64,000 nt of DNA from the NCBI RefSeq assembly GCF_041886205.1, contig NZ_CP169029.1, one strand, 5' to 3'. The stretch comes from Escherichia coli (GTDB lineage: Bacteria; Pseudomonadota; Gammaproteobacteria; Enterobacterales; Enterobacteriaceae). Shown here piece after piece: positions 43,371-64,000 of the stretch. Position 1 is the first letter of the stretch. Every line of letters starts with the position of its first letter. Below the pieces are notes generated by a model, which searched no databases, was not told where the DNA came from, and saw nothing but the letters and a program-made list of their open reading frames with translations. The position numbers and the translations under genes were made by a program.

Positions 43371-44240
43371 ATGGCCATAAGCATCAAGGGTGTTAATACC
43401 GGTGTTATTCGCAAGAGTAATAATTTCATTGCAATGGCGCTGAAAATTAAAGAACCTCGCAATAAAGAATCGTTGTTCTTTATGTCTGTCATGGAACTGC
43501 GCGACCTGCTGATTGCGCTGGAAAGTCGTCTGCATCAAAAGCATAAACTGGATGCTGCTGCACGCCTTCAGTATGAGCAAGCTCGCGATAAAGTCATTAA
43601 GAAAATGGCAGAAAACATCCCAGAAATTCTGGTTGATGAGCTTAAAAATGCCGATATTAATCGTCGGGTTAACACGCTGGAACTTACCGATAATCAAGGC
43701 GAAAATCTTACCTTCGTATTAACGCTACATGACGGTAGCAAATGTGAGTTAGTCGTCAATGAGTTGCAGATTGAAATGCTGGCGCGAGCAATCATTCATG
43801 CAATTAATAATGCGGAAATGCGTGAACTGGCATTACGTATTACCTCACTGTTAGATTTCCTGCCGTTATATGACGTTGACTGCCAGGAAAATGGCAATCT
43901 GGAATATGACACCTATTCCCAACCGGAATGGAAACATAACCTGTTCGACCATTATCTGGCGGTGCTTTACCGCTTTAAAGATGAAAGTGGCAAAGAACAA
44001 TTTAGCGGCGCAGTGGTGAAAACGCGTGAAGCAACGCCGGGTAAAGAAATAGAGGCGATCACTCGCCGAATGCTTGATTTCAGCCCACGACTGAAAAAAC
44101 TCGCGGGTGTGCCATGTCAGGTCTATGTTCGCACCGTAGCGGCGAATAACGCCCAACCGCTAACCCAGGATCAATGCTTACGCGCGCTGCATCACTTACG
44201 TGTTCAATCCACCAGCAAAACTGCACCACAGGCGAAATAA
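43371..44240 (+). CDS. yjeJ: uncharacterised protein YjeJ
   Basis: 289 aa ORF matching YjeJ; AT-rich gene preceded by a very AT-rich 5' region. Confidence 0.8.
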   Translation: MAISIKGVNTGVIRKSNNFIAMALKIKEPRNKESLFFMSVMELRDLLIALESRLHQKHKLDAAARLQYEQARDKVIKKMAENIPEILVDELKNADINRRVNTLELTDNQGENLTFVLTLHDGSKCELVVNELQIEMLARAIIHAINNAEMRELALRITSLLDFLPLYDVDCQENGNLEYDTYSQPEWKHNLFDHYLAVLYRFKDESGKEQFSGAVVKTREATPGKEIEAITRRMLDFSPRLKKLAGVPCQVYVRTVAANNAQPLTQDQCLRALHHLRVQSTSKTAPQAK

Positions 44241-44309
44241 TCTCATCTTTGCTAATGCGAGGCTGGAGCCATCCAGCCTGAAATGACTGATAACGTGATC
44301 GTTGGTCAT

Positions 44310-44408
<99 letters not shown>

Positions 44409-44432
44409 AATTATACGTTTGTCACCATCACA

Positions 44433-44786
44433 TCAGTTCGGGCACTTATAAACCTGACCGATAATCTGGCTATCCGTCGGGACAAAACTGGACAACATTC
44501 CCTGCGACGGGCTGCTGATGCCATAAATCACGTTACCGCCCATTGCAGCCGCCTGGTTGCGCAGATCGTTTGCTGCGCCGCGCATAGAACCGCCCTCTTC
44601 TCCGTGTTGCCCGGAAAGCCAGTTGCTTTGCTTACCTGTCGCAGTACCAATCAGCTGGCACTCTGCGCCTGGCTGCTCGTCCACAATGCGTACACTCTGA
44701 CCGGCAGCACTCAATTCGTTGCTGGAGCTACAACCCGCCATCAGTAGCGCGGCACCGACAATCCCTGATAAGTATTTTACGTGCAT
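44433..44786 (-). CDS. yjeI: DUF4156 lipoprotein YjeI
   Basis: Track ORF trimmed to MHVKYLSGIVGAALLMAGC start (117 aa, lipobox LMAGC). Confidence 0.8.
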   Translation of the reverse strand: MHVKYLSGIVGAALLMAGCSSSNELSAAGQSVRIVDEQPGAECQLIGTATGKQSNWLSGQHGEEGGSMRGAANDLRNQAAAMGGNVIYGISSPSQGMLSSFVPTDSQIIGQVYKCPN

Positions 44787-44923
44787 GTTATTCCCCATAA
44801 TCAATGAGCTGGACGCCACTCGCGTCGTCCGTGTCTGAATCTTATACTAGAAAGATGACCAAAAGAAAAACCCCCAGACATTTCTGCCCGGGGGTTTGTT
44901 TATTTCTGCGAGGTGCAGGGCAA

Positions 44924-46582
<1,659 letters not shown>

Positions 46583-46613
46583 TTAAATTCGTATGTTCAG
46601 TGTCGTGCGAGGA

Positions 46614-46958
<345 letters not shown>

Positions 46959-46984
46959 TTACGTGGTTTCCCGGCTGGTGACCA

Positions 46985-47020
46985 GAGAAATGGGGATGAG
47001 GATTCGCCCCTTCAAGGGGG
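46985..47020 (-). promoter_or_regulatory. sigma-32 heat-shock promoter of groSL
   Basis: On minus strand: cccccTTGAAggggcgaa ... CCCCATtTc, matching the sigma-32 -35 CTTGAA and -10 CCCCATNT consensus, about 80 nt upstream of groS. Confidence 0.75.
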
Positions 47021-47182
47021 AAAAAGAAAAAAAATTCTGATCAGCACAAAATCGGGTGAAAACCCTGATTCACCTCACATTTCATCGCAATTTCTTCATC
47101 GCCGTCATAAGCGAATCTGATTGTGCTACCATCGAAAATCTACGCAGTTGCCCAAAATTTGGGCGCAATCGGATATCAACCC

Positions 47183-48439
47183 ATGAGTGGACTCAAACAA
47201 GAACTGGGGCTGGCCCAGGGCATTGGACTGCTATCGACGTCATTATTAGGCACTGGCGTGTTTGCCGTTCCTGCGTTAGCTGCGCTGGTAGCGGGCAATA
47301 ACAGCCTGTGGGCGTGGCCCGTTTTGATTATCTTAGTGTTCCCGATTGCGATTGTGTTTGCGATTCTGGGTCGCCACTATCCCAGTGCAGGCGGCGTCGC
47401 GCACTTCGTCGGTATGGCGTTTGGTTCGCGGCTTGAGCGAGTCACCGGCTGGCTGTTTTTATCGGTCATTCCCGTGGGTTTGCCTGCCGCGCTACAAATT
47501 GCCGCCGGGTTCGGCCAGGCGATGTTTGGCTGGCATAGCTGGCAACTGTTGTTGGCAGAACTCGGTACGCTGGCGTTGGTGTGGTATATCGGTACTCGCG
47601 GTGCCAGTTCCAGTGCAAATCTACAAACCGTTATTGCCGGACTTATCGTCGCACTGATTGTCGCTATCTGGTGGGCGGGCGATATCAAACCTGCGAGTAT
47701 CCCCTTCCCCGCGCCAGGAAATATCGAACTTACCGGGTTATTTGCTGCGTTATCAGTGATGTTCTGGTGTTTTGTCGGTCTGGAAGCATTTGCCCATCTT
47801 GCCTCGGAATTTAAAAATCCAGAACGTGATTTTCCTCGTGCTTTGATGATTGGTCTGCTGCTGGCAGGATTAGTCTACTGGGGCTGTACGGTAGTCGTCT
47901 TACACTTCGACGCCTATGGTGAACAAATGGCCGCGGCAGCATCGCTTCCAAAAATTGTAGTGCAACTGTTCGGTGTAGGAGCGTTATGGATTGCCTGCGT
48001 AATTGGCTATCTGGCCTGCTTTGCCAGTCTCAACATTTATATACAGAGCTTCGCCCGCCTGGTCTGGTCGCAGGCGCAACATAATCCTGACCACTACCTG
48101 GCACGCCTCTCTTCTCGCCATATCCCGAATAATGCCCTCAATGCGGTGCTCGGCTGCTGCGTGGTGAGCACTTTGGTGATTCATGCTTTAGAGATCAATC
48201 TGGACGCTCTTATTATTTATGCCAATGGCATCTTTATTATGATTTATCTGTTATGCATGCTGGCAGGCTGTAAATTATTGCAAGGACGTTATCGACTACT
48301 GGCGGTGGTTGGCGGGCTGTTATGCGTTCTGTTACTGGCAATGGTCGGCTGGAAAAGTCTCTATGCGCTGATCATGCTGGCGGGGTTATGGCTGTTGCTG
48401 CCAAAACGAAAAACGCCGGAAAATGGCATAACCACATAA
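47183..48439 (+). CDS. yjeH: APC-family amino acid exporter YjeH
   Basis: Track ORF trimmed to MSGLKQELGLAQ start (418 aa). Confidence 0.85.
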   Translation: MSGLKQELGLAQGIGLLSTSLLGTGVFAVPALAALVAGNNSLWAWPVLIILVFPIAIVFAILGRHYPSAGGVAHFVGMAFGSRLERVTGWLFLSVIPVGLPAALQIAAGFGQAMFGWHSWQLLLAELGTLALVWYIGTRGASSSANLQTVIAGLIVALIVAIWWAGDIKPASIPFPAPGNIELTGLFAALSVMFWCFVGLEAFAHLASEFKNPERDFPRALMIGLLLAGLVYWGCTVVVLHFDAYGEQMAAAASLPKIVVQLFGVGALWIACVIGYLACFASLNIYIQSFARLVWSQAQHNPDHYLARLSSRHIPNNALNAVLGCCVVSTLVIHALEINLDALIIYANGIFIMIYLLCMLAGCKLLQGRYRLLAVVGGLLCVLLLAMVGWKSLYALIMLAGLWLLLPKRKTPENGITT

Positions 48440-48454
48440 TCCGGCGTTTCGACA

Positions 48455-48931
48455 TTAATCCTGGCGATCGTCTTTATGATCAAGGCGGTCGCGCTCATCA
48501 TCCTTTCGCTGGTACTCACCATCAAAAGTATTACCGCCACCGGTCCCGGCGCTAAAACCGCCGCCTGGCATACGAGAAAAGCGCAAATGCGGCATCAACT
48601 TCACTGTCAGATGCTTTTGCACCGGCGGTAATAAAAGCAGAAGACCGAGGAAGTCGGTGAAAAAGCCCGGTAATAAAAGCAGCAAACCGGCAATGATCAG
48701 CGAAACACTTTTAATCATCTCCGCCGCTGGGTTTTCACCCGCCGCCATTTTTTGCTGCATCAGCACGAAATTCTTAAAGCCCTGGTTACGTACCAGTGAC
48801 ATCCCGATAACTGACGTGAATATAACCAGCACGAGGGTCAGCAATACCCCCAATACATGGGCAACCTGAATAAAGATTGAAATCTCAATATAGACATAAA
48901 GGAAAATGGCAATAAAAGGTAACCAGCGCAA
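48455..48931 (-). CDS. fxsA: inner-membrane protein FxsA
   Basis: 158 aa ORF matching FxsA. Confidence 0.9.
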   Translation of the reverse strand: MRWLPFIAIFLYVYIEISIFIQVAHVLGVLLTLVLVIFTSVIGMSLVRNQGFKNFVLMQQKMAAGENPAAEMIKSVSLIIAGLLLLLPGFFTDFLGLLLLLPPVQKHLTVKLMPHLRFSRMPGGGFSAGTGGGNTFDGEYQRKDDERDRLDHKDDRQD

Positions 48932-49267
48932 AGGTTTCTCCTGTAATAGCAGCCGGTAAAACCCGGCTACCTGAATGGGTTGCGAATCGCGTTCAGCTTA
49001 TATTGTGGTCATTAGCAAAATTTCAAGATGTTTGCGCAACTATTTTTGGTAGTAATCCCAAAGCGGTGATCTATTTCACAAATTAATAATTAAGGGGTAA
49101 AAACCGACACTTAAAGTGATCCAGATTACGGTAGAAATCCTCAAGCAGCATATGATCTCGGGTATTCGGTCGATGCAGGGGATAATCGTCGGTCGAAAAA
49201 CATTCGAAACCACATATATTCTGTGTGTTTAAAGCAAATCATTGGCAGCTTGAAAAAGAAGGTTCAC

Positions 49268-50704
49268 ATGTCAAACAACATTCGTATCGAAGAAGATCTG
49301 TTGGGTACCAGGGAAGTTCCAGCTGATGCCTACTATGGTGTTCACACTCTGAGAGCGATTGAAAACTTCTATATCAGCAACAACAAAATCAGTGATATTC
49401 CTGAATTTGTTCGCGGTATGGTAATGGTTAAAAAAGCCGCAGCTATGGCAAACAAAGAGCTGCAAACCATTCCTAAAAGTGTAGCGAATGCCATCATTGC
49501 CGCATGTGATGAAGTCCTGAACAACGGAAAATGCATGGATCAGTTCCCGGTAGACGTCTACCAGGGCGGCGCAGGTACTTCCGTAAACATGAACACCAAC
49601 GAAGTGCTGGCCAATATCGGTCTGGAACTGATGGGTCACCAGAAAGGTGAATATCAGTACCTGAACCCGAACGACCATGTTAACAAATGTCAGTCCACTA
49701 ACGACGCCTACCCGACCGGTTTCCGTATCGCAGTTTACTCTTCCCTGATTAAGCTGGTAGATGCGATTAACCAACTGCGTGAAGGCTTTGAACGTAAAGC
49801 TGTCGAATTCCAGGACATCCTGAAAATGGGTCGTACCCAGCTGCAGGACGCAGTACCGATGACCCTCGGTCAGGAATTCCGCGCTTTCAGCATCCTGCTG
49901 AAAGAAGAAGTGAAAAATATCCAACGTACCGCTGAACTGCTGCTGGAAGTTAACCTTGGCGCAACAGCAATCGGTACTGGTCTGAACACGCCGAAAGAGT
50001 ACTCTCCGCTGGCAGTGAAAAAACTGGCTGAAGTCACTGGCTTCCCATGCGTACCGGCTGAAGACCTGATCGAAGCGACCTCTGACTGCGGCGCTTATGT
50101 TATGGTTCACGGCGCGCTGAAACGCCTGGCTGTGAAGATGTCCAAAATCTGTAACGACCTGCGCTTGCTCTCTTCTGGTCCACGTGCCGGCCTGAACGAG
50201 ATCAACCTGCCGGAACTGCAGGCGGGCTCTTCCATCATGCCAGCTAAAGTAAACCCGGTTGTTCCGGAAGTGGTTAACCAGGTATGCTTCAAAGTCATCG
50301 GTAACGACACCACTGTTACCATGGCAGCAGAAGCAGGTCAGCTGCAGTTGAACGTTATGGAGCCGGTCATTGGCCAGGCTATGTTCGAATCCGTTCACAT
50401 TCTGACCAACGCTTGCTACAACCTGCTGGAAAAATGCATTAACGGCATCACTGCTAACAAAGAAGTGTGCGAAGGTTACGTTTACAACTCTATCGGTATC
50501 GTTACTTACCTGAACCCGTTCATCGGTCACCACAACGGTGACATCGTGGGTAAAATCTGTGCCGAAACCGGTAAGAGTGTACGTGAAGTCGTTCTGGAAC
50601 GCGGTCTGTTGACTGAAGCGGAACTTGACGATATTTTCTCCGTACAGAATCTGATGCACCCGGCTTACAAAGCAAAACGCTATACTGATGAAAGCGAACA
50701 GTAA
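49268..50704 (+). CDS. aspA: aspartate ammonia-lyase
   Basis: Track ORF trimmed to [18 protein letters not shown] start (478 aa); fumarase/aspartase signature GSSxMPxKxN. Confidence 0.95.
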
Positions 50705-50730
50705 TCGTACAGGGTAGTACAAATAAAGAA

Positions 50731-50756
50731 GGCACGTCAGATGACGTGCCTTTTTT
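50731..50756 (+). terminator. Rho-independent terminator after aspA
   Basis: Hairpin ggcacgtca-g-atgacgtgcc followed by tttttt, 26 nt after aspA stop. Confidence 0.7.
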
Positions 50757-50821
50757 CTTGTGAGCAGTAACTTAAAAACAACAATCTAATATCAACTTGT
50801 TAAAAAACAAGGAAGGCTAAT

Positions 50822-52123
50822 ATGCTAGTTGTAGAACTCATCATAGTTTTGCTGGCGATCTTCTTGGGCGCCAGATTGGGGGGAATAGGTATTGGTTTTG
50901 CAGGCGGATTGGGGGTGCTGGTTCTTGCCGCTATTGGCGTTAAACCCGGTAACATCCCGTTCGATGTCATTTCCATTATCATGGCGGTTATCGCCGCTAT
51001 TTCTGCCATGCAGGTTGCTGGCGGTCTGGACTATCTGGTTCATCAGACAGAAAAGCTGCTGCGCCGTAACCCGAAATACATCACGATCCTCGCACCTATC
51101 GTGACCTATTTCCTGACAATCTTTGCTGGTACTGGCAACATCTCTCTGGCGACACTGCCAGTTATCGCTGAAGTTGCGAAGGAACAAGGCGTTAAACCTT
51201 GCCGTCCGCTGTCTACTGCAGTGGTATCCGCGCAGATTGCGATCACCGCATCGCCAATCTCAGCGGCAGTGGTTTACATGTCTTCCGTGATGGAAGGTCA
51301 TGGCATCAGCTACCTCCATCTGCTCTCCGTGGTCATCCCGTCCACCCTGCTGGCGGTTCTGGTGATGTCCTTTCTGGTCACTATGCTGTTCAACTCCAAA
51401 CTCTCTGACGATCCGATTTATCGCAAGCGTCTGGAAGAGGGCTTGGTTGAACTGCGCGGTGAAAAGCAGATTGAAATCAAATCCGGTGCAAAAACGTCCG
51501 TTTGGCTGTTCCTGCTGGGCGTAGTTGGCGTGGTTATCTATGCAATCATCAACAGCCCAAGCATGGGTCTGGTTGAAAAACCGCTGATGAACACCACCAA
51601 CGCAATCCTGATCATCATGCTCAGCGTTGCAACTCTGACCACCGTTATCTGTAAAGTCGATACCGACAACATCCTCAACTCCAGCACCTTCAAAGCAGGT
51701 ATGAGCGCCTGTATTTGTATCCTGGGTGTTGCGTGGCTGGGCGATACTTTCGTTTCCAACAACATCGACTGGATCAAAGATACCGCTGGTGAAGTGATTC
51801 AGGGTCATCCGTGGCTGCTGGCCGTCATCTTCTTCTTTGCTTCTGCTCTGCTGTACTCTCAGGCTGCAACCGCAAAAGCACTGATGCCGATGGCTCTGGC
51901 ACTGAACGTTTCTCCGCTGACCGCTGTTGCTTCTTTCGCTGCGGTGTCTGGTCTGTTCATTCTGCCGACCTATCCGACGCTGGTTGCTGCGGTACAGATG
52001 GATGACACGGGTACTACCCGTATCGGTAAATTCGTCTTCAACCATCCGTTCTTCATCCCGGGTACTCTGGGTGTTGCCCTGGCCGTTTGCTTCGGCTTCG
52101 TGCTGGGTAGCTTCATGCTGTAA
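50822..52123 (+). CDS. dcuA: anaerobic C4-dicarboxylate transporter DcuA
   Basis: 433 aa polytopic membrane ORF matching DcuA. Confidence 0.95.
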   Translation: MLVVELIIVLLAIFLGARLGGIGIGFAGGLGVLVLAAIGVKPGNIPFDVISIIMAVIAAISAMQVAGGLDYLVHQTEKLLRRNPKYITILAPIVTYFLTIFAGTGNISLATLPVIAEVAKEQGVKPCRPLSTAVVSAQIAITASPISAAVVYMSSVMEGHGISYLHLLSVVIPSTLLAVLVMSFLVTMLFNSKLSDDPIYRKRLEEGLVELRGEKQIEIKSGAKTSVWLFLLGVVGVVIYAIINSPSMGLVEKPLMNTTNAILIIMLSVATLTTVICKVDTDNILNSSTFKAGMSACICILGVAWLGDTFVSNNIDWIKDTAGEVIQGHPWLLAVIFFFASALLYSQAATAKALMPMALALNVSPLTAVASFAAVSGLFILPTYPTLVAAVQMDDTGTTRIGKFVFNHPFFIPGTLGVALAVCFGFVLGSFML

Positions 52124-52238
52124 TGACCAATCGCGGGGCGTTCACGCCCCGCTTTCTTTCCCGCCGACTAACATCCTTCCCCCGTCCGTTGTATAGTGAC
52201 CTCTCTCTTGCGGTTCCATCTGTTCTTGCGAGGTGTTT

Positions 52239-52577
52239 ATGCTTGATGAAAAAAGTTCGAATACCGCGTCTGTCGTGGTGCTATGTACGGCACCAGATGA
52301 AGCGACAGCCCAGGATTTAGCCGCCAAAGTGCTGGCGGAAAAACTGGCGGCCTGCGCGACCTTGATCCCCGGCGCTACCTCTCTCTATTACTGGGAAGGT
52401 AAGCTGGAGCAAGAATACGAAGTGCAGATGATTTTAAAAACTACCGTATCTCACCAGCAGGCACTGCTGGAATGCCTGAAGTCTCATCATCCATATCAAA
52501 CCCCGGAACTTCTGGTTTTACCTGTTACACACGGAGACACAGATTACCTCTCATGGCTCAACGCATCTTTACGCTGA
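52239..52577 (+). CDS. cutA: divalent-cation tolerance protein CutA
   Basis: Track ORF trimmed to [15 protein letters not shown] start (112 aa). Confidence 0.9.
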
Positions 52578-54250
52578 TCCTGCTACTTTGCAGCACTTCC
52601 GTTTTTGCCGGATTATTCGACGCGCCGGGACGTTCACATTTTGTCCCCGCGGATCAAGCCTTTGCTTTTGATTTTCAGCAAAACCAACATGACCTGAATC
52701 TGACCTGGCAGATCAAAGACGGTTACTACCTCTACCGTAAACAGATCCGCATTACGCCGGAACACGCGAAAATTGCCGACGTGCAGCTGCCGCAAGGCGT
52801 CTGGCATGAAGATGAGTTTTACGGCAAAAGCGAGATTTACCGCGATCGGCTGACGCTTCCCGTAACCATCAACCAGGCGAGTGCGGGAGCGACGTTAACT
52901 GTCACCTACCAGGGCTGTGCTGATGCCGGTTTCTGTTATCCGCCAGAAACCAAAACCGTTCCGTTAAGCGAAGTGGTAGCCAACAACGCAGCGTCACAGC
53001 CTGTGTCTGTTCCGCAGCAAGAGCAGCACACCGCGCAATTGCCCTTTTCCGCGCTCTGGGCGTTGTTGATCGGTATTGGTATCGCCTTTACGCCATGCGT
53101 GCTGCCAATGTACCCACTGATTTCTGGCATCGTGCTGGGTGGTAAACAGCGGCTCTCCACTGCCAGAGCATTGTTGCTGACCTTTATTTATGTGCAGGGG
53201 ATGGCACTGACTTACACGGCGCTGGGTCTGGTAGTTGCCGCCGCAGGGTTACAGTTCCAGGCGGCGCTACAGCACCCATACGTGCTCATTGGCCTCGCCA
53301 TCGTCTTTACCTTGCTGGCGATGTCAATGTTTGGCTTGTTTACTCTACAACTCCCCTCTTCGCTGCAAACACGTCTCACGTTGATGAGCAATCGCCAACA
53401 GGGCGGCTCACCTGGCGGTGTGTTTGTTATGGGGGCGATTGCCGGACTGATCTGTTCACCATGCACCACCGCACCGCTTAGCGCGATTCTGCTGTATATC
53501 GCCCAAAGCGGGAACATGTGGCTGGGCGGCGGCACGCTTTATCTCTATGCGTTGGGCATGGGCCTGCCGCTGATGCTAATTACCGTCTTTGGTAACCGCT
53601 TGCTGCCGAAAAGCGGCCCGTGGATGGAACAAGTCAAAACCGCGTTTGGTTTTGTGATCCTCGCACTGCCGGTCTTCCTGCTGGAGCGAGTGATTGGTGA
53701 TGTATGGGGATTACGCTTGTGGTCGGCGCTGGGTGTCGCATTCTTTGGCTGGGCCTTTATCACCAGCCTACAGGCTAAACGCGGCTGGATGCGTATTGTG
53801 CAAATTATTCTGCTGGCAGCGGCATTGGTTAGCGTGCGCCCACTTCAGGATTGGGCATTTGGTGCGACGCATACCGCGCAAACTCAGACGCATCTCAACT
53901 TTACACAAATCAAAACGGTAGATGAGTTAAATCAGGCGCTCGTTGAAGCCAAAGGCAAACCGGTGATGTTAGATCTTTATGCCGACTGGTGCGTCGCCTG
54001 TAAAGAGTTTGAGAAATACACCTTCAGCGACCCGCAGGTGCAAAAAGCGTTAGCAGACACGGTCTTACTTCAGGCCAACGTCACTGCTAACGACGCACAA
54101 GATGTGGCGCTGTTAAAGCATCTTAATGTCCTTGGCCTACCGACAATTCTCTTTTTTGACGGACAAGGCCAGGAGCATCCACAAGCACGCGTCACGGGCT
54201 TTATGGATGCTGAAACCTTCAGCGCACATTTGCGCGATCGCCAACCGTGA
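52553..54250 (+). CDS. dsbD: thiol:disulfide interchange protein DsbD
   Basis: Track ORF trimmed to [14 protein letters not shown] start (565 aa); C-terminal thioredoxin CVAC motif; overlaps cutA 3' end. Confidence 0.9.
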
Positions 54251-54286
54251 ACGACACTTGCAGTGGGAAAGACGGAGGAAAATAGC

Positions 54287-54862
54287 GTGCAACGTGAAGA
54301 TGTACTGGGAGAAGCCCTGAAATTATTAGAATTACAAGGGATTGCCAACACCACGCTGGAGATGGTTGCTGAACGTGTGGATTATCCACTGGACGAGCTA
54401 CGCCGCTTCTGGCCAGACAAAGAGGCAATCCTCTACGATGCGCTGCGTTATCTTAGCCAACAGATAGATGTCTGGCGTCGTCAGCTGATGCTGGACGAAA
54501 CGCAAACCGCCGAACAAAAGCTGCTGGCACGTTATCAGGCGTTATCGGAGTGCGTTAAAAACAACCGCTATCCGGGCTGTCTATTTATCGCTGCCTGTAC
54601 GTTTTATCCCGATCCTGGCCACCCTATTCATCAACTGGCCGATCAGCAAAAAAGCGCGGCCTACGATTTCACCCACGAACTGTTAACCACACTGGAAGTT
54701 GACGATCCGGCGATGGTAGCAAAGCAGATGGAACTGGTGCTGGAAGGCTGTTTAAGCCGAATGCTGGTGAATCGTAGCCAGGCGGATGTCGACACTGCAC
54801 ATCGGCTGGCGGAAGATATCCTGCGCTTCGCCCGCTGCCGCCAGGGTGGTGCATTGACCTGA
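54287..54862 (+). CDS. yjdC: TetR-family transcriptional regulator YjdC
   Basis: Track ORF trimmed to GTG start giving [11 protein letters not shown] (191 aa). Confidence 0.8.
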
Positions 54863-54968
54863 CAGAAACACAGAAAAGAAGCGATTTGCCGCAATCTTAA
54901 GCAGTTGAATCGCTTTTACTGAAATTAGGTTGACGAGATGTGCAGATTACGGTTTAATGCGCCCCGTT

Positions 54969-55044
54969 GCCCGGATAGCTCAGTCGGTAGAGCAGGGGAT
55001 TGAAAATCCCCGTGTCCTTGGTTCGATTCCGAGTCCGGGCACCA
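54969..55044 (+). tRNA. pheU: tRNA-Phe (GAA)
   Basis: 76 nt exact match to E. coli tRNA-Phe (gcccggatagctcagtcggtagagcaggggattgaaaatcccc...cacca); located after yjdC as pheU is in E. coli. Confidence 0.95.
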
Positions 55045-55241
55045 AATTCATATCAACGGACCTCCACGGAGGTCCGTTTTTCGTTTCAGAACGCCACAAT
55101 TTAAGCGTTCTACCTACAAATCAATTCTACCGAACTCAACCAGATTCCCCCCACATCAACCCCATTGTGTGGGTATAATTGCGGGCATACCCCAGTTCGA
55201 CAGAATTTGTACCCTCTTTAACGCATTCAGAAGGCTATACT

Positions 55242-56504
55242 ATGGCACTGACTGACGCAAAAATCCGGGCTGCAAAGCCCACTGACAAGGCTTATAAACT
55301 CACTGACGGGGCTGGCATGTTCCTACTGGTTCATCCTAATGGTTCCCGTTACTGGCGTCTCCGTTATCGTATTCTGGGTAAGGAGAAGACTCTGGCACTT
55401 GGTGTGTATCCAGAAGTTTCTCTCTCCGAAGCTCGTACAAAACGGGATGAGGCCCGAAAACTGATTTCGGAGGGGATTGACCCTTGCGAACTGAAAAGAG
55501 CTAAAAAAGTAGTCCCTGATTTACAACTCTCTTTTGAACATATTGCACGACGCTGGCATGCCAGTAATAAACAATGGGCACAATCACACAGCGATAAAGT
55601 ACTCAAAAGCCTCGAGACACACGTTTTCCCCTTTATCGGCAACCGGGATATCACAACACTCAGTACCCCGGACCTGCTTATCCCTGTTCGTGCTGCAGAA
55701 GCTAAACAAATTTATGAAATCGCCAGTCGTCTGCAGCAAAGAATATCTGCTGTAATGCGTTATGCCGTACAGTCTGGCATCATCAGATATAACCCGGCTC
55801 TGGATATGGCTGGTGCATTGACCACGGTAAAACGCCAGCATCGCCCTGCACTGGATCTTTCACGCCTGCCTGAACTTCTGTCGCGTATTGACGGTTATAA
55901 AGGCCAGCCTGTCACCCGACTGGCAGTTATGCTGAATTTACTGGTTTTTATTCGTTCCAGTGAACTCAGATACGCCCGCTGGTCTGAAATTGATATTGAC
56001 AATGCCATGTGGACTATTCCAGCCGAACGCGAACCTCTGCCTGGCGTAAAATTCTCACACCGGGGCTCCAAGATGCGAACACCACATCTTGTGCCACTCA
56101 GCAAACAGGCTGTAGCCATACTGGCAGAACTACAGACATGGGCTGGTGAAAATGGTCTGATCTTTACGGGAGCACATGACCCGCGTAAACCAATCAGTGA
56201 AAATACTGTAAATAAAGCCCTGAGGGTGATGGGGTATGACACAACCCAGGATGTCTGTGGCCATGGATTCCGGGCGATGGCGTGCAGTGCATTGATTGAA
56301 TCAGGTTTGTGGTCCCGCGATGCTGTGGAACGTCAGATGAGCCATCAGGAGCGTAATGGTGTACGTGCTGCGTATATCCATAAAGCAGAACATCTGGAAG
56401 AACGGCGACTGATGTTGCAATGGTGGGCCGATTTTCTGGATGCGAACCGGGAGAAGGGTATCAGTCCGTTTGAATATGCAAAAATTAACAATCCATTAAA
56501 ATAG
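55242..56504 (+). CDS. P4-type tyrosine integrase (tRNA-associated genomic-island integrase)
   Basis: 420 aa ORF starting MALTDAKIRAAKP, 198 nt downstream of tRNA-Phe; C-terminal catalytic region with HGFRAMACS (H-x-x-R) and nucleophile Tyr in RAAYIHK; appears full length. Confidence 0.85.
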   Translation: MALTDAKIRAAKPTDKAYKLTDGAGMFLLVHPNGSRYWRLRYRILGKEKTLALGVYPEVSLSEARTKRDEARKLISEGIDPCELKRAKKVVPDLQLSFEHIARRWHASNKQWAQSHSDKVLKSLETHVFPFIGNRDITTLSTPDLLIPVRAAEAKQIYEIASRLQQRISAVMRYAVQSGIIRYNPALDMAGALTTVKRQHRPALDLSRLPELLSRIDGYKGQPVTRLAVMLNLLVFIRSSELRYARWSEIDIDNAMWTIPAEREPLPGVKFSHRGSKMRTPHLVPLSKQAVAILAELQTWAGENGLIFTGAHDPRKPISENTVNKALRVMGYDTTQDVCGHGFRAMACSALIESGLWSRDAVERQMSHQERNGVRAAYIHKAEHLEERRLMLQWWADFLDANREKGISPFEYAKINNPLK

Positions 56505-56590
56505 TAAGCAGTCCGGGCAATCAGCCCGGACTGCTGGTGATGCTGCCAACTTACTGATTTAGTGTATGATGGTGTTTTTGAGGTGCTCCA

Positions 56591-56866
56591 GTGGCTTCTG
56601 TTTCTATCAGCTGTCCCTCCTGTTCAGCTACTGACGGGGTGGTACGTAACGGCAAAAGCACCGCCGGACATCAGCGCTATCTCTGCTCTCACTGCCGTAA
56701 AACATGGCAACTGCAGTTCACTTACACCGCTTCTCAACCCGGTACGCACCAGAAAATCATTGATATGGCCATGAATGGCGTTGGATGCCGGGCAACTGCC
56801 CGCATTATGGGCGTTGGCCTCAACACGATTTTACGTCACTTAAAAAACTCAGGCCGCAGTCGGTAA
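56591..56866 (+). CDS. insA: IS1 protein InsA
   Basis: 91 aa [43 protein letters not shown]. Confidence 0.95.
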
Positions 56867-57288
56867 CCTCGCGCATACAGCCGGGCAGTGACGTCATCGT
56901 CTGCGCGGAAATGGACGAACAGTGGGGCTATGTCGGGGCTAAATCGCGCCAGCGCTGGCTGTTTTACGCGTATGACAGGCTCCGGAAGACGGTTGTTGCG
57001 CACGTATTCGGTGAACGCACTATGGCGACGCTGGAGCGTCTTCTGGGCCTGCTGTCGGCCTTTGAGGTCGTGGTATGGATGACGGATGGCTGGCCGCTTT
57101 ATGAATCACGCCTGAAGGGAGAACTGCACGTTATCAGCAAGCGATATACGCAGCGCATTGAGCGGCATAACCTGAATCTGAGGCAGCATCTGGCAAGGCT
57201 GGGCAGGAAGTCACTGTCGTTCTCAAAATCGGTGGAGCTGCATGACAAAGTTATCGGGCATTATCTGAACATAAAACACTATCAATAA
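56785..57288 (+). CDS. insB: IS1 InsB frame (expressed as InsAB' transposase by -1 frameshift)
   Basis: 167 aa ORF overlapping insA in the -1 frame, ending ...[19 protein letters not shown]. Confidence 0.9.
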
Positions 57289-57354
57289 GTTGGAGTCATT
57301 ACCCGCTTTGCTTTAGCGAGAACTGGTCTTTTATTCGCACTCAGGAGTACATGT

Positions 57355-58116
57355 ATGAGGATTTGCAGCGACCAACCTTGTATTGTTTTATTGACTGAAA
57401 AAGATGTCTGGATAAGGGTGAATGGGAAAGAACCTATTAGCCTTAAAGCTAACCATATGGCGTTATTAAATTGTGAAAATAATATTATCGACGTCTCCTC
57501 TCTTAACAACACTTTGGTTGCTCATATTAGTCACGACATCATCAAAGATTACCTCCGGTTTCTGAATAAAGATCTCTCGCAAATACCAGTATGGCAACGT
57601 AGCGCTACGCCCATACTCACCCTGCCATGCCTGACGCCAGACGTCTTTCGCGTTGCCGCGCAACACAGCATGATGCCCGCAGAAACTGAGTCAGAAAAGG
57701 AACGAACACGCGCATTATTATTCACGGTGCTATCCCGTTTTCTCGACAGTAAAAAATTCGTTTCATTAATGATGTATATGTTACGTAATTGTGTAAGTGA
57801 CAGCGTTTATCAAATTATTGAAAGCGATATTCACAAAGACTGGAATCTTAGTATGGTAGCCAGTTGTTTATGTCTTAGCCCAAGTCTGTTAAAGAAAAAG
57901 TTGAAAAGCGAAAACACCAGTTATAGCCAAATAATCACCACCTGCCGCATGCGTTATGCCGTAAATGAATTAATGATGGACGGTAAAAATATCTCTCAGG
58001 TATCACAGTCCTGCGGCTACAACAGTACGTCGTACTTTATTTCTGTCTTTAAAGACTTCTACGGTATGACGCCGCTGCATTATGTTAGTCAGCACAGAGA
58101 ACGCACTGTCGCCTGA
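57355..58116 (+). CDS. adiY: AraC-family regulator AdiY
   Basis: 253 aa ORF MRICSDQPCIVLLTEKDVWIRVNGKEP matching AdiY; begins only 51 nt after the IS1 end. Confidence 0.9.
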   Translation: MRICSDQPCIVLLTEKDVWIRVNGKEPISLKANHMALLNCENNIIDVSSLNNTLVAHISHDIIKDYLRFLNKDLSQIPVWQRSATPILTLPCLTPDVFRVAAQHSMMPAETESEKERTRALLFTVLSRFLDSKKFVSLMMYMLRNCVSDSVYQIIESDIHKDWNLSMVASCLCLSPSLLKKKLKSENTSYSQIITTCRMRYAVNELMMDGKNISQVSQSCGYNSTSYFISVFKDFYGMTPLHYVSQHRERTVA

Positions 58117-58252
58117 TTTTTAACCTTAACGAAGAGCTATATTAATAACGGCATCAGCGATAACCCGGTCGATAATAATTCAACTATCGAATGCAGGCGT
58201 ATGATATGACGTAATTTATTGTCACGAAGCTCGCCTTCGCAGGAGTTTAATT

Positions 58253-59590
58253 ATGTCTTCGGATGCTGATGCTCACAAAGTGGGCTTAATCCCCGTCACC
58301 CTGATGGTGTCGGGGAATATTATGGGGTCAGGTGTTTTTCTGTTACCTGCAAACCTGGCCTCTACTGGCGGGATTGCCATTTATGGATGGTTGGTGACGA
58401 TTATCGGTGCACTGGGGCTCTCGATGGTATACGCCAAAATGTCGTTCCTCGACCCAAGTCCTGGTGGTTCTTACGCTTACGCCCGCCGCTGCTTTGGCCC
58501 GTTTCTCGGTTATCAAACCAACGTCCTCTACTGGCTGGCCTGCTGGATCGGCAATATCGCCATGGTGGTCATTGGCGTAGGATATTTAAGTTACTTCTTC
58601 CCGATTCTGAAAGATCCATTGGTATTAACCATCACCTGCGTCGTGGTGCTGTGGATCTTCGTCCTGCTGAACATTGTCGGTCCGAAAATGATCACCCGTG
58701 TGCAGGCAGTTGCCACCGTGCTGGCGCTGATCCCCATCGTCGGGATTGCCGTATTTGGCTGGTTCTGGTTCCGTGGTGAAACCTATATGGCGGCATGGAA
58801 CGTCAGCGGCCTGGGCACCTTCGGTGCAATTCAAAGTACCCTTAACGTTACGCTGTGGTCGTTCATCGGTGTGGAAAGTGCCTCCGTTGCCGCAGGTGTG
58901 GTGAAAAACCCGAAACGCAATGTCCCTATCGCCACCATTGGTGGGGTATTGATTGCCGCCGTTTGCTATGTACTTTCTACCACCGCGATTATGGGGATGA
59001 TCCCTAATGCCGCACTGCGCGTTTCTGCTTCGCCATTCGGTGATGCCGCACGGATGGCGTTGGGTGACACCGCCGGGGCCATTGTTTCCTTCTGCGCAGC
59101 TGCGGGTTGCTTAGGTTCACTGGGCGGCTGGACGTTGCTGGCGGGTCAAACGGCGAAAGCCGCTGCCGATGACGGACTGTTCCCACCGATTTTTGCCCGT
59201 GTAAATAAAGCGGGTACGCCAGTGGCGGGGCTGATTATCGTCGGTATTTTGATGACCATCTTCCAGCTCAGCAGCATTTCACCAAACGCGACCAAAGAGT
59301 TCGGTCTGGTTTCTTCCGTCTCGGTCATCTTTACACTGGTGCCATATCTTTACACCTGTGCGGCGTTACTGCTGCTCGGACACGGTCACTTTGGTAAAGC
59401 ACGCCCGGCATATCTGGCAGTTACTACCATTGCCTTCCTCTACTGCATCTGGGCCGTGGTGGGGTCCGGAGCGAAAGAGGTTATGTGGTCATTTGTCACC
59501 CTGATGGTCATCACCGCCATGTATGCGCTGAATTACAACCGGCTACATAAAAACCCGTATCCCTTAGATGCACCAATAAGCAAAGATTAA
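58253..59590 (+). CDS. adiC: arginine:agmatine antiporter AdiC
   Basis: 445 aa [39 protein letters not shown] matching AdiC. Confidence 0.95.
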
Positions 59591-59693
59591 TTCCCCTTAA
59601 TCCAGCAAACATAAAAGCCAACCTTAAGAACTTAAGGTTGGCTTAATTTTGCTTTGCGAGCATATGCGCACTTTGTTCGATGGAAACACCGTG

Positions 59694-61337
59694 ATGTTGA
59701 AGCGCCTACTAAAAAGACCCTCTTTGAATTTACTCGCCTGGCTATTGTTGGCCGCTTTTTATATCTCTATCTGCCTGAATATTGCCTTTTTTAAACAGGT
59801 GTTGCAGGCGCTGCCGCTGGATTCGCTGCATAACGTACTGGTTTTCTTGTCGATGCCGGTCGTCGCTTTCAGCGTGATTAATATTGTCCTGACACTAAGC
59901 TCTTTCTTATGGCTTAATCGACCACTGGCCTGCCTGTTTATTCTGGTTGGCGCGGCTGCACAATATTTCATAATGACTTACGGCATCGTCATCGACCGCT
60001 CGATGATTGCCAATATTATTGATACCACTCCGGCAGAAAGTTATGCGCTGATGACACCGCAAATGTTATTAACGCTGGGATTCAGCGGCGTGCTTGCTGC
60101 GCTGATTGCCTGCTGGATAAAAATCAAACCTGCCACCTCGCGTCTGCGCAGTGTTCTTTTCCGTGGAGCCAATATTCTGGTTTCTGTACTACTGATTTTG
60201 CTGGTCGCCGCACTGTTTTATAAAGACTACGCCTCGTTGTTCCGCAATAACAAAGAGCTGGTGAAATCCTTAAGCCCCTCTAACAGCATTGTTGCCAGCT
60301 GGTCATGGTACTCCCATCAGCGACTGGCAAATCTGCCGCTGGTGCGAATTGGTGAAGACGCGCACCGCAACCCGTTAATGCAGAACGAAAAACGTAAAAA
60401 TTTGACCATCCTGATTGTCGGCGAAACCTCGCGGGCGGAGAACTTCTCCCTCAACGGCTACCCGCGTGAAACTAACCCGCGGCTGGCGAAAGATAACGTG
60501 GTCTATTTCCCTAATACCGCATCTTGCGGCACGGCAACGGCAGTTTCAGTACCGTGCATGTTCTCGGATATGCCGCGTGAGCACTACAAAGAAGAGCTGG
60601 CACAGCACCAGGAAGGCGTGCTGGATATCATTCAGCGAGCGGGCATCAACGTGCTGTGGAATGACAACGATGGCGGCTGTAAAGGTGCCTGCGACCGCGT
60701 GCCTCACCAGAACGTCACCGCGCTGAATCTACCTGATCAGTGCATCAACGGCGAATGCTATGACGAAGTGCTGTTCCACGGGCTTGAAGAGTACATCAAT
60801 AACCTGCAAGGTGATGGCGTGATTGTCTTACACACCATCGGCAGCCACGGTCCGACCTATTACAACCGCTATCCGCCTCAGTTCAGGAAATTTACCCCAA
60901 CCTGCGACACCAATGAGATCCAGACCTGTACCAAAGAGCAACTGGTGAACACTTACGACAACACGCTGGTTTACGTCGACTATATTGTTGATAAAGCGAT
61001 TAATCTGCTTAAAGAACATCAGGATAAATTTACCACCAGCCTGGTTTATCTTTCTGACCACGGTGAATCGTTAGGTGAAAATGGCATCTATCTGCACGGT
61101 CTGCCTTATGCCATCGCCCCGGATAGCCAAAAACAGGTGCCAATGCTGCTGTGGCTGTCGGAGGATTATCAAAAACGGTATCAGGTTGACCAGAACTGCC
61201 TGCAAAAACAGGCGCAAACGCAACACTATTCACAAGACAATTTATTCTCCACGCTATTGGGATTAACTGGCGTTGAGACGAAGTATTACCAGGCTGCGGA
61301 TGATATTCTGCAAACTTGCAGGAGAGTGAGTAAATGA
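59694..61337 (+). CDS. eptA: lipid A phosphoethanolamine transferase EptA (PmrC)
   Basis: Track ORF trimmed to [22 protein letters not shown] start (547 aa). Confidence 0.9.
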
Positions 61338-62002
61338 AAATTCTGATTGTTGAAGACGATACGCTGTTATTGCAGGGACTGATTCTGGCGGCGCAAACCG
61401 AAGGCTACGCGTGCGATGGCGTGACAACCGCGCGGATGGCGGAACAAAGCCTTGAGGCCGGTCATTACAGCCTGGTGGTACTGGATTTAGGGTTACCCGA
61501 CGAAGATGGACTGCATTTTCTCGCCCGTATCCGGCAGAAAAAATACACCCTGCCGGTACTGATCCTCACCGCTCGCGATACGCTGACCGACAAAATCGCC
61601 GGGCTGGATGTCGGTGCCGATGACTATCTGGTGAAGCCCTTTGCGCTGGAAGAGTTACACGCCCGTATCCGAGCCCTGCTACGACGCCATAATAATCAGG
61701 GCGAAAGTGAGCTGATTGTTGGCAATCTGACGCTGAATATGGGTCGCCGTCAGGTATGGATGGGCGGTGAAGAGTTGATTCTGACGCCCAAAGAATATGC
61801 TCTGCTGTCACGGTTAATGCTCAAAGCAGGCAGTCCGGTGCATCGGGAAATTCTCTACAACGACATCTATAACTGGGACAATGAACCCTCGACCAACACC
61901 CTGGAAGTGCATATCCACAATCTGCGCGACAAAGTGGGCAAAGCCCGTATCCGCACCGTGCGCGGCTTTGGCTATATGCTGGTCGCGAATGAGGAAAACT
62001 AA
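61334..62002 (+). CDS. basR: two-component response regulator BasR (PmrA)
   Basis: 222 aa [19 protein letters not shown] with receiver-domain Asp; start overlaps eptA stop (ATGA). Confidence 0.95.
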
Positions 62003-62011
62003 TTGAATCTG

Positions 62012-63103
62012 ATGCGTTTTCTGCGCCGACCAATATCGCTGCGCCAACGGCTGATATTGACCATCGGGGCCATTTTGTTGGTGTTTGAGCTGATCAGCGT
62101 CTTCTGGCTATGGCATGAAAGTACCGAGCAGATTCAGCTGTTTGAGCAGGCGCTACGCGACAATCGCAACAACGATCGCCACATCATGCGTGAGATCCGC
62201 GAGGCGGTCGCCAGCCTGATTGTCCCCGGCGTCTTTATGGTCAGCCTGACGCTATTTATCTGCTATCAGGCGGTACGCCGCATCACCCGCCCGCTGGCGG
62301 AGCTGCAAAAAGAGCTGGAAGCGCGCACCGCCGACAACTTAACGCCCATTGCCATTCACAGCGCCACCCTCGAAATCGAAGCGGTGGTTTCGGCGTTAAA
62401 CGATCTGGTCAGTCGCCTGACCAGCACGCTGGATAACGAAAGGTTGTTTACCGCTGACGTCGCGCACGAACTGCGAACGCCACTGGCGGGGGTGCGTTTG
62501 CATCTGGAACTGCTGGCGAAAACGCATCACATTGATGTAGCACCGTTAGTGGCACGGCTTGATCAGATGATGGAGAGCGTCTCCCAGCTGCTGCAACTGG
62601 CGCGTGCCGGACAGTCATTTTCTTCCGGTAATTATCAACATGTAAAACTGCTGGAAGATGTCATTCTCCCCTCGTATGACGAACTCAGTACCATGCTCGA
62701 CCAGCGACAGCAAACCCTGCTATTGCCAGAGAGCGCCGCCGACATCACCGTTCAGGGTGATGCAACCCTGCTGCGGATGTTATTGCGAAACCTGGTAGAA
62801 AACGCCCATCGTTACAGCCCGCAAGGCAGCAACATTATGATTAAGCTGCAAGAAGATGACGGAGCGGTCATGGCAGTTGAAGATGAAGGACCAGGTATTG
62901 ATGAGAGTAAATGCGGGGAGTTGAGTAAAGCGTTTGTACGTATGGACAGCCGTTATGGCGGGATTGGTCTGGGGTTAAGTATTGTCAGCCGCATTACACA
63001 GTTGCATCACGGGCAGTTTTTCCTGCAAAACCGGCAAGAGACTTCCGGCACGCGGGCCTGGGTACGGCTGAAGAAAGATCAGTACGTGGCAAACCAGATA
63101 TAA
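62012..63103 (+). CDS. basS: two-component sensor kinase BasS (PmrB)
   Basis: Track ORF (TTG at 62003) trimmed to ATG giving MRFLRRPISLRQ (363 aa); H-box ADVAHELRTPL. Confidence 0.9.
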   Translation: MRFLRRPISLRQRLILTIGAILLVFELISVFWLWHESTEQIQLFEQALRDNRNNDRHIMREIREAVASLIVPGVFMVSLTLFICYQAVRRITRPLAELQKELEARTADNLTPIAIHSATLEIEAVVSALNDLVSRLTSTLDNERLFTADVAHELRTPLAGVRLHLELLAKTHHIDVAPLVARLDQMMESVSQLLQLARAGQSFSSGNYQHVKLLEDVILPSYDELSTMLDQRQQTLLLPESAADITVQGDATLLRMLLRNLVENAHRYSPQGSNIMIKLQEDDGAVMAVEDEGPGIDESKCGELSKAFVRMDSRYGGIGLGLSIVSRITQLHHGQFFLQNRQETSGTRAWVRLKKDQYVANQI

Positions 63104-63279
63104 AGAAAGCTGCTGACCACCAGCACGCTGAACACGGTAGTTAAACTTTCATAAACACGGTTTTTCATTGCACTCTCCTCCGTTAACCTGGAGGAGAGTA
63201 TGCGCGTCAGAGATTAAGTGAACCTTAAGAGTTCAATTGGCCTGATAAGACAGCGTCACATCAGGCCATCCGTTTCAGC

Positions 63280-64000
63280 TTATTCATCAATTCGCGGATG
63301 TTGCTGCACCAGGCGGGTACGTTTCGCCTGCAAATCGGCAATCTCGTGGTCAATATTATCGATTTTCTGCTCGATATTATCGTAATGCTCGACGAGAATT
63401 TCCTTCGCTTCCTGTATATCTGACGCCGCCGGTGTCGCACCTTTCAACGGACGATTTGCCGTCTCTTTCATGGTTACGCCGGTGATTAAACCAATCACCG
63501 CCACTACCATCAGGTAATAGGCAGGCATCATCAGATTCTGCGAGCTTTCGACCAGCCAGGCCGCCAGTGTTGGCGTCAGACCGGCAACCAGCACCGAAAT
63601 ATTAAATGCCGCCGCCAGCGCGCTGTAACGGATATGCGTCGGGAACATCGCTGGCAAGGTAGAAGCCATAACGCCCGTAAAGCAGTTAAGGATCACCGCC
63701 AGCATCAGTAACCCGGCAAAAATCAGGCCGATGACGTTACTGTTAATCAGAATAAACGCCGGGATCGCCAACACAAACAGGGCAACACTACCAAGTAGCA
63801 CAAACGGACGACGGCCAAAACGGTCACTCAGCAAGCCCATCACCGGCTGGACAAACAGCATACCGATCATAATGGCGATAATAATCAGCACCCCGTGGTC
63901 TTCGGAGTAATGCAAGTTATGCGACAAATAACTCGGCATATAGGTCAGCAACATGTAGTAAGTCACGTTGGTGGCAATTACCAGACCAATACATGTCAAC
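63280..64000 (-). CDS. proP: osmoprotectant/proton symporter ProP, 3' portion (5' end outside window)
   Basis: ORF open to window edge; C-terminal coiled-coil tail ...DIQEAKEILVEHYDNIEQKIDNIDHEIADLQAKRTRLVQQHPRIDE characteristic of ProP. Confidence 0.85.
   Translation of the reverse strand, partial: LTCIGLVIATNVTYYMLLTYMPSYLSHNLHYSEDHGVLIIIAIMIGMLFVQPVMGLLSDRFGRRPFVLLGSVALFVLAIPAFILINSNVIGLIFAGLLMLAVILNCFTGVMASTLPAMFPTHIRYSALAAAFNISVLVAGLTPTLAAWLVESSQNLMMPAYYLMVVAVIGLITGVTMKETANRPLKGATPAASDIQEAKEILVEHYDNIEQKIDNIDHEIADLQAKRTRLVQQHPRIDE

Follow-up and report, generated by a model that had tools for sequence, protein, structure and literature searches.

The 64-kb stretch of Escherichia coli chromosome analyzed here (hereafter, the window) very probably records two events at the tRNA-Phe gene pheU, namely the acquisition of a genomic island and then an IS1-associated deletion that removed the island's cargo together with approximately 23 kb of chromosome. 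In their place, an intact integrase gene (int) and a single IS1 now connect pheU to adiY, in the following order.

54969..55044, + strand: pheU, tRNA-Phe(GAA), identified with ARAGORN
55045..55241, + strand: left end of the acquired island, comprising the pheU terminator hairpin and the region upstream of int
55242..56504, + strand: full-length P4-type tyrosine integrase, 420 aa, open reading frame from the ATG at 55242
56507..56535: perfect hairpin with a 12-bp stem and a 5-nt loop, directly after the int stop codon
56536..57303, + strand: complete IS1, 768 bp, with insA, the A6C frameshift site and the insB' frame; the deletion joint
57304..57354, + strand: remaining 51 nt of the adiA–adiY spacer, placed by K-12 coordinates
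57355..58116, + strand: adiY, intact AraC-type activator, without adiA; 100% identical in strains wlxctx60 and 6EVA and annotated as adiY in matching records
58253..59590, + strand: adiC, intact arginine/agmatine antiporter, without its decarboxylase partner (NCBIfam NF007929, 892 bits against a cut-off of 574)

An earlier note, made from the letters of the window, had placed the tRNA-Phe gene, the full-length integrase, the 768-bp IS1 and adiY, and all of these features were found at those positions. Its spacings of 31 nt from the int stop codon to IS1 and of 51 nt from the IS1 right end to the adiY ATG (57355) were likewise reproduced. The adjacency of tRNA and integrase also stood, but the gap, given as 198 nt, measured 197 nt from the tRNA-Phe 3' end to the integrase ATG. 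The 3' part of pheU serves pheU/pheV islands as attachment site (attL core), a terminator-like hairpin of pheU lies at 55055..55078, and the left end of IS1 abuts the last base of the int-proximal hairpin.

To the left of the junction, window positions 2154..55158 were collinear with K-12 4416000..4362437, and to the right, 57304..64000 matched K-12 4337980..4331284. The K-12 interval absent from the window, 4337981..4362436, spans 24,456 bp and contains the yjdQ integrase remnant, cadC, cadB, cadA, dtpC, lysU, ghoST, yjdIJ, dcuSR, dcuB, fumB, yjdF, melBAR and adiA, as well as 273 of the 324 bp of the adiA–adiY spacer, upstream of adiY. Within the 64-kb window, cadCBA was absent between pheU and adiY. 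The K-12 gene order from pheU to adiY was correctly given in the earlier note, as was a missing cadC-to-adiA block of roughly 25 kb. Its list of lost genes is accurate for K-12 content but not for melB, which was already missing in the strain's own clone; hence, the block really lost from this chromosome is 22,926 bp, measured from the tRNA end, rather than 24,456 bp. Both flanks retain the K-12 orientation relative to each other, which rules out a single inversion and agrees with the original reading of a deletion. It is also hardly credible that the block was relocated, either as an IS1-bounded circle or composite transposon reinserted elsewhere or through multiple inversions. Two directly oriented IS1 copies around the block would constitute a composite, potentially mobile unit, but relocation requires at least two rare events, and a 19-kb query recovered no complete E. 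coli genome in which pheU and adiY were less than 10 kb apart. In the two high-coverage matches to this query, the full block was present, bridged by an internal IS1.

The switch from core chromosome to island occurs at the end of the tRNA gene. Up to the tRNA 3' end, window and clonal relatives were identical; immediately beyond it they diverged, with six mismatches to wlxctx60 and 6EVA at 55054..55148 and homology to these relatives stopping at 55158. Conversely, all 1491 positions of 55045..56535 were identical to the head of a pheU island of more than 70 kb in E. coli ZYB39, a genome identical to the window over 54089..56535. Since mismatches to the relatives were confined to 55054..55148 and identity to ZYB39 ran across this region, the island boundary lies at the tRNA end, substantiating the proposal in the earlier note that an island had integrated at pheU.

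The integrase DNA was 100% identical to that of ZYB39, and the identical protein is on record with the domains Arm-DNA-bind_3 (PF13356), Phage_int_M (PF22022) and Phage_integrase (PF00589). It shared 55.1% identity with phage P4 Int (X51522) across residues 1-408 (97% of length, E=4e-152) and matched the phrog_1 integrase (E=7e-64), and HGFR and AAY motifs are visible in the translation of this putative recombinase. In ZYB39, AT-rich island DNA directly follows the int hairpin, and the genes beyond the integrase encode a large helicase/PLD-like protein, a phosphoethanolamine transferase, an outer-membrane protein and other modules. This integrase also stands at the head of pheU or pheV islands with cargo in at least nine assemblies besides ZYB39. 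Exact matches to the protein occurred on 20 contigs; seven of the 10 listed carry island cargo after int, and the remaining three end before any cargo could show. None of these 10 of the 20 contigs had IS1 and adiY after the identical integrase.

Other tRNA-Phe islands with P4-type integrases, at pheU in EAEC 042 and in ZYB39 and CP52E, have the same 197-nt integrase spacing and the same domain architecture. Unlike them, the window preserves no island DNA further than 31 nt past the integrase, neither cargo nor attR. The clonal relative CP52E illustrates the undeleted arrangement with a different, 21-kb island bounded by a 50-nt direct repeat of the tRNA 3' part, after which come an old integrase remnant and cadC through adiA. 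In the window, the integrase adjoins the pheU 3' end, and a search of all 64 kb gave no further copy of this 3' end (attR), as expected after the deletion.

At the joint itself, the left inverted repeat of IS1, GGTGATGCTGCCAACTTACTGAT, is an exact match to the canonical sequence, and the right inverted repeat matches at 18 of 23 positions. Its open reading frames occupy 56591..56866 (insA) and 56785..57288 (insB' frame), with the A6C frameshift motif at 56842..56848, within TTAAAAAAC at 56840..56848, and the InsB' part scored 147 bits against NCBIfam NF033558 (IS1 family transposase; cut-off 100). A simple insertion should leave a target-site duplication of 8-9 bp, but none surrounds this IS1, the left flank being CGGACTGCT and the right flank CGCTTTGCT. 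The missing duplication marks a rearrangement joint and is no argument against the identity of the element as IS1; insertion sequences without a duplication have been attributed to IS–IS recombination or adjacent deletions (PMC11708052). Taken together, the absent duplication, the absent attR and the native orientation of the flanks fit an IS1-associated deletion. Among 5,426 complete E. coli genomes, the closest variant of this IS1 was 99.2% identical. Comparison of variable sites with seven other IS1 copies placed it, with two private changes of its own, in a known variant group at 6-10 mismatches and revealed no clear two-parent mosaic.

Both ends of the joint fall where IS1 inserts repeatedly. 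The right junction lies on a 9-bp target, CGCTTTGCT (57304..57312), that is a recurrent IS1 target: strains KFu022, TOE3 and STIN_95 carry simple IS1 insertions at the same nucleotide, each with a 9-bp duplication, CGCTT(T/C)GCT, and with adiA intact. The three IS1 variants at this site differ from that of the window by 22, 38 and 50 mismatches, and the three insertions are independent of one another; the search that found them joined same-strand pieces only, such that inverted IS1 copies would escape it. Nothing relevant to an IS1 hot spot at adiY was found in the literature, and the exact reuse of a single 9-bp target upstream of adiY adds a minor new point on how IS1 chooses its targets. 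On the left, the zone after the int hairpin holds IS1 at +9, at +33 or within the int 3' end in other genomes. In L73, E308 and GPT21-003_1, an IS1 in this int-proximal zone is accompanied by truncated cargo and no duplication. Compared with a known precedent for IS-bounded deletion, the window likewise has one IS copy at the joint, no target-site duplication and a loss of tens of kilobases beside the IS. In contrast to that precedent, both junctions here lie in recurrent IS1 target zones, one of them exactly that of three independent insertions, and the product does not reveal which event came first.

These observations suggest the following history. In its ancestral state, the clone carried a decayed integrase remnant after pheU, then cadCBA through adiA, and then adiY. 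A ZYB39-family island entered the pheU 3' end, which would have moved the remnant and the cad-to-adi block further from the tRNA, comparable to what the different island has done in CP52E. Subsequently, an IS1-associated deletion joined the base 31 nt past the int stop codon to the 9-bp IS1 target 51 nt upstream of adiY, taking the island cargo, attR and 22.9 kb of chromosome and leaving one duplication-free IS1 at the joint. The island entry and the deletion are evident from the sequence, whereas the route taken by the deletion is conjectural. One route, with a chance somewhat short of even, begins with insertion of IS1 at the adiY hot spot, after which the left end of the element attacked the site beyond int by intramolecular transposition. 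In another, to which we give a comparable chance, directly oriented IS1 copies stood at both sites and recombined in a RecA-dependent manner. The reverse order, in which an IS1 already seated just past int attacked the adiY hot spot with its right end, is rather unlikely. Since all three routes yield the same product, they are not separable from the window. The earlier note's IS1-mediated adjacent deletion therefore holds as an IS1-associated removal of cargo and block, while "adjacent" describes one of three routes. No intermediate with IS1 and a duplication at either site was found in this clone.

Two further explanations bear on the same joint. The left flank and the hot-spot duplication share a terminal TGCT, so a transposase-independent deletion could be envisaged, in which slippage or illegitimate recombination between TGCT copies acted on an IS1 pre-existing at the adiY hot spot. 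This 4-nt identity at the joint (the foot of the int hairpin and the end of the left target duplication) and the perfect 12-bp hairpin exactly at the breakpoint would favor such an event. However, 4 nt offer little homology for the removal of more than 23 kb, and in unrelated genomes the ends of IS1 lie within a few nucleotides of the int hairpin, pointing to IS1 targeting; we consider slippage very unlikely. An assembly artefact, whereby two IS1 copies with cargo and block between them were collapsed into one, would look exactly like the window, and each junction alone is plausible as a simple insertion, given that IS1 occurs at or near both in other genomes. Nevertheless, contiguous sequence through IS1 over 64 kb suggests a long-read or finished assembly, finished genomes carry duplication-free IS1-bounded deletions at the same int-proximal zone (L73, E308 and GPT21-003_1), and a genuine IS-bounded deletion exists in this region of the sister strain wlxctx60, all of which render an artefact improbable. 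The IS1 deletion at pheU is real but routine, a rearrangement of a known kind.

By its core sequence, the window belongs to a commensal-type, ordinary E. coli clone, the same as that of wlxctx60, an isolate from bear faeces. The two differed by six SNPs in 52,247 bp on the left and none in 6,697 bp on the right, and the core was approximately 99.9% identical to isolates of human origin (faeces and an anal swab), to isolates from pig faeces and to one isolate of unrecorded source. The block is intact in the close relatives 6EVA, VE-T9, LHM10-1 and CP52E, and its loss is thus recent and private. Neither the int–IS1 junction nor the whole int–IS1–adiY allele occurred in any of the 5,426 complete E. 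coli genomes, a set without Shigella genomes. The IS1–adiY junction alone was common to three of the 5,426, as simple insertions. An exact-match scan for the int–IS1 junction returned no hits in a metagenome collection or in species-representative genomes. Strain wlxctx60 carries its own, smaller deletion of cadCBA, with its left end in the old integrase remnant and its right end in dtpC. Although this deletion arose in the same clone and locus and is likewise IS-bounded, it involves a divergent IS1-family element whose nucleotide sequence shows no detectable resemblance to the IS1 of the window, and lysU through adiA are kept. Given this second deletion, the cad genes in the window may have been lost before the IS1 event.

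Loss of cadCBA beside an IS1 had led the earlier note to propose a Shigella or enteroinvasive E. coli (EIEC) origin, a proposal our data do not support. Maurelli in 1998 and Day in 2001 reportedly described the cadA "black hole" and the erosion of the cad locus in Shigella. Both have since been summarized (PMC7373316, PMC5723341). Within the window, cadA is indeed missing, and as in Shigella, cadCBA was lost beside pheU at a site with a P4-like integrase and IS elements. However, the core is six SNPs per 52 kb from the bear isolate, and the nearest genomes, at 99.9-100% core identity, stem from faecal or anal-swab samples of bear, human and pig. The high IS load of an invasive, pINV-bearing lineage is also lacking, as the window contains one IS in 64 kb, compared with 229-348 IS in Shigella chromosomes and a median of 32 in E. 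coli (PMC7373316). Among EIEC strains, the cad region is generally collinear with K-12 and cadC is mutated (PMC5723341). Moreover, the window's deletion runs through adiA, whereas at least S. flexneri keeps this gene, strain M90T still expressing adiA and fumB (PMC4229854). Finally, cadA was absent from 215 of the 5,426 complete E. coli genomes (4%). We regard a pathoadaptive deletion in a Shigella or EIEC lineage as a most unlikely explanation. In practical terms, Shigella or EIEC cannot be diagnosed from a cadA deletion beside a P4-type integrase and IS1.

The deletion is predicted to leave the strain with neither lysine decarboxylase nor the acid-inducible arginine decarboxylase, and hence without AR3 and AR4. 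DcuSR, DcuB, FumB, alpha-galactosidase and LysU would also be missing, adiY and adiC would be intact but orphaned, and the integrase, itself intact, would have no attR partner. A single event would consequently have cost two of four acid-resistance systems, the DcuSR/DcuB/FumB fumarate-respiration module and melibiose use, presenting a clean, datable case of tRNA-linked islands and IS1 jointly remodelling the E. coli chromosome.

Across the 5,426 complete genomes, cadA is absent from 215 and adiA from 15, a 14-fold difference between loci approximately 20 kb apart. The window and wlxctx60, separated by about 1 SNP per 10 kb, have lost cadCBA via two different IS-bounded deletions. Loss of the cad region might be recurrently favored in this non-invasive commensal clone, through selection or through a mutational hot spot formed by the tRNA island site and IS1 targets, although we regard this as doubtful. 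If true, "black hole" formation at pheU would be general in E. coli and no speciality of Shigella or EIEC. In biochemical identification, cadA-less E. coli, approximately 4% of finished genomes, would score lysine-decarboxylase negative.

The layout at pheU proposed in the earlier note agrees with the ARAGORN call, the ORFs and the IS1 ends, the sole slip in the described anatomy being the tRNA-int gap, which is 197 nt rather than 198 nt. The features are as follows.

54969..55044: tRNA-Phe(GAA) (pheU), called by ARAGORN
55242 (ATG) to 56504 (stop): integrase (int), 420-aa ORF
56536..57303: IS1, 768 bp
57304..57312: IS1 hot spot CGCTT(T/C)GCT, 51 nt upstream of adiY
57355: start of adiY, 51 nt past IS1, followed by adiC and eptA
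L003 (database sequence) 6378..7163, with equivalent positions in L004 and L005: IS1 at the adiY hot spot in other strains

The left inverted repeat of IS1 is an exact canonical match, found once in the 64-kb window, and the right one matches at 18 of 23 positions. The element contains insA, the frameshift site TTAAAAAAC and the insB' frame, and the NCBIfam IS1 transposase model scores above cut-off.

Window positions 2154..55158 are collinear with K-12 4416000..4362437 (98.9% identity) and 57304..64000 correspond to K-12 4337980..4331284 (99.76% identity), leaving 24,456 bp of K-12 (4337981..4362436) without counterpart; the K-12 MG1655 gene order on which the absence of the cadC-to-adiA block had been based was checked and is right. 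The right breakpoint lies within the adiA-adiY spacer, of which 51 bp are kept while 273 bp and the whole of adiA are gone. A single inversion is ruled out because both flanks retain their native relative orientation. The only break in left collinearity is a short replacement at the yjeN-yjeO position, where 187 bp (32108..32294) stand in place of a 742-bp K-12 segment carrying both genes; in the relative wlxctx60, likewise, mscM directly follows yjeM. The three tandem tRNA-Gly genes glyV, glyX and glyY (25494..25794) are ordinary and the same in K-12.

Relatives were ranked with a 22.9-kb core query. wlxctx60 (bear faeces, Japan) was the top match at 100.0% identity, followed at ~99.9% each by 6EVA (human faeces), VE-T9 (source unrecorded), LHM10-1 (pig faeces) and CP52E (human anal swab). 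By nucleotide comparison the window strain and wlxctx60 are one clone: the 52,247 bp left of pheU contain 6 differences, and the 6,697 bp right of IS1 are identical. In 6EVA, VE-T9 and LHM10-1 the order is pheU, a decayed integrase remnant, cadC to adiA, and adiY, with 22,926 bp from the tRNA end to the point where the window carries IS1. melB is already missing throughout the clone, melA abutting yjdF in these three genomes, so the ancestral block was 22.9 kb, versus 24.6 kb in K-12. Their intact block shows that the window deletion is recent and private to this strain. wlxctx60 has a deletion of its own, independent of that in the window, which removes only cadC, cadB and cadA: pheU and the remnant are followed by a divergent IS1-family element (36708..37557 of its sequence, L008) and a dtpC truncated at its 5' end. 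No nucleotide similarity was detectable between this element and the window IS1.

The proposal that an island had integrated at pheU was borne out by the switch away from the clonal relatives at the tRNA 3' end and by identity with ZYB39, a bovine strain. Against the relatives, the window matches perfectly to the tRNA 3' end, then differs at six positions within 55054..55148 and ceases to be homologous at 55158. ZYB39 differs in its core, yet is identical to window 54089..56535, up to the base before IS1, and there the same integrase stands at the start of a composite island of >70 kb at pheU, encoding a 1171-aa AAA/PLD-like protein, a phosphoethanolamine transferase, an outer-membrane protein, CBASS, CDI and F17 fimbriae. 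Among the contigs listed for the exact integrase protein, 7 of 10 have it at pheU or pheV in front of similar cargo. Its designation as P4-type is justified by its domain architecture (Arm-DNA-bind_3, Phage_int_M, Phage_integrase) and by 55% identity to Int of phage P4 across 97% of the protein. The clone's old remnant, which aligns only to 55045..55213 (83%) and 56308..56521 (70%), was rejected as the source of full-length int; this K-12-type yjdQ remnant (LHM10-1, L028 982..1600) retains the upstream region and last ~200 nt of the island integrase, and is an internally deleted paralogue of it. The effect of an integration within this clone can be seen in CP52E, where a different island of 21 kb occupies pheU (L027 1294..22593). 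Its genes include another integrase, type I restriction-modification and DUF262, and 50 nt from the 3' part of the tRNA stand as a direct repeat at its two ends; displaced to the distal side of the island are the remnant, matching LHM10-1 at 300/300 positions, and an intact cadC-to-adiA block. In the window the tRNA end occurs only once; the distal copy, attR, was removed together with the deletion.

The left flank of IS1 reads CGGACTGCT and its right flank CGCTTTGCT; as these differ, the element lacks a target duplication. Such absence is put down to adjacent deletion or to IS copies recombining with each other (PMC11708052). Island integration came first, and the IS1-associated deletion followed. 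IS1 may have entered at adiY with an adjacent deletion leftwards, or after int with one rightwards, or two direct IS1 copies may have undergone homologous recombination; all three routes give the observed product. The IS1-mediated adjacent deletion originally suggested thus stands as an IS1-associated deletion without duplication, adjacent deletion being one of three routes. Deletion by microhomology, to which four identical nucleotides (TGCT) at the joint could point, is a weak alternative. The window IS1 falls within a known variant group, the nearest variant being 99.2% identical, and has two changes of its own; no clear two-parent mosaic was found in its sequence.

Both ends of the deletion coincide with sites that IS1 uses elsewhere. 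At the left junction IS1 directly follows the final base of a perfect 12-bp hairpin past the int stop codon. IS1 lies at +9 in L73, at +33 in GPT21-003_1 and inside the int 3' end in E308, each time without target duplication and abutting truncated or unrelated DNA, which makes the zone past int (window 56505..56535; L001 7606..7615, L002 7592 and L030 6239 in database sequences) one in which IS1 habitually inserts and gives rise to deletions. Same-strand IS1 near the int 3' end occurs in 60 genomes (those covering 80% or more of a 421-bp junction query); together with the truncated cargo in those three strains, this indicates that IS1-mediated loss of island cargo beside int is common. About 50 bp around the int-family 3' end and terminator hairpin collect IS1 in many genomes. 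On the right, three unrelated E. coli strains (KFu022, TOE3 and STIN_95) have a simple IS1 insertion at exactly the junction nucleotide and an intact adiA, each insertion flanked by the 9-bp duplication CGCTT(T/C)GCT. Since their elements are different variants (22, 38 and 50 mismatches to the window IS1), the three insertions arose independently at one hot spot, of which the window is the fourth use. STIN_95 has another IS1 within adiY. Same-strand IS1 in or near the adiA-adiY spacer or adiY occurs in 12 of 5,426 genomes, and a literature search found no report of an IS1 hot spot upstream of adiY.

Neither the int-IS1 junction nor the whole allele was found among 5,426 complete E. coli genomes, none of which has pheU and adiY <10 kb apart, and exact junction scans of metagenome and species-representative collections were empty. 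cadA is missing from 215 of the 5,426 (4.0%) versus 15 (0.28%) for adiA; hence cad loss is not rare in E. coli, whereas loss of everything through adiA is. The allele is new, and the type of event, here in a commensal-type E. coli, is well known. That cad-region loss recurs in non-invasive E. coli, by selection or through a mutational hot spot, seems rather unlikely.

The suggested Shigella/EIEC origin was not supported: the clone's sequenced relatives were isolated from faeces or anal swabs of a bear, humans and a pig, apart from one whose source is unrecorded, and the window holds a single IS in 64 kb. Shigella chromosomes carry 229-348 IS, versus a median of 32 in typical E. coli (PMC7373316). 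Expression of adiA and fumB persists in S. flexneri (PMC4229854), whereas the window region lacks both. The strain may have acquired the invasion plasmid pINV recently, but nothing in this one window points to it.

Judged from K-12 functional annotation of the missing genes, lysine- and arginine-dependent acid resistance would be lost, as would the DcuSR sensor, DcuB antiporter and fumarase B, and alpha-galactosidase with its regulator, LysU, DtpC and GhoST. adiY and adiC are intact, yet presumably functionally orphaned, and the integrase, also intact, is probably stranded without attR.
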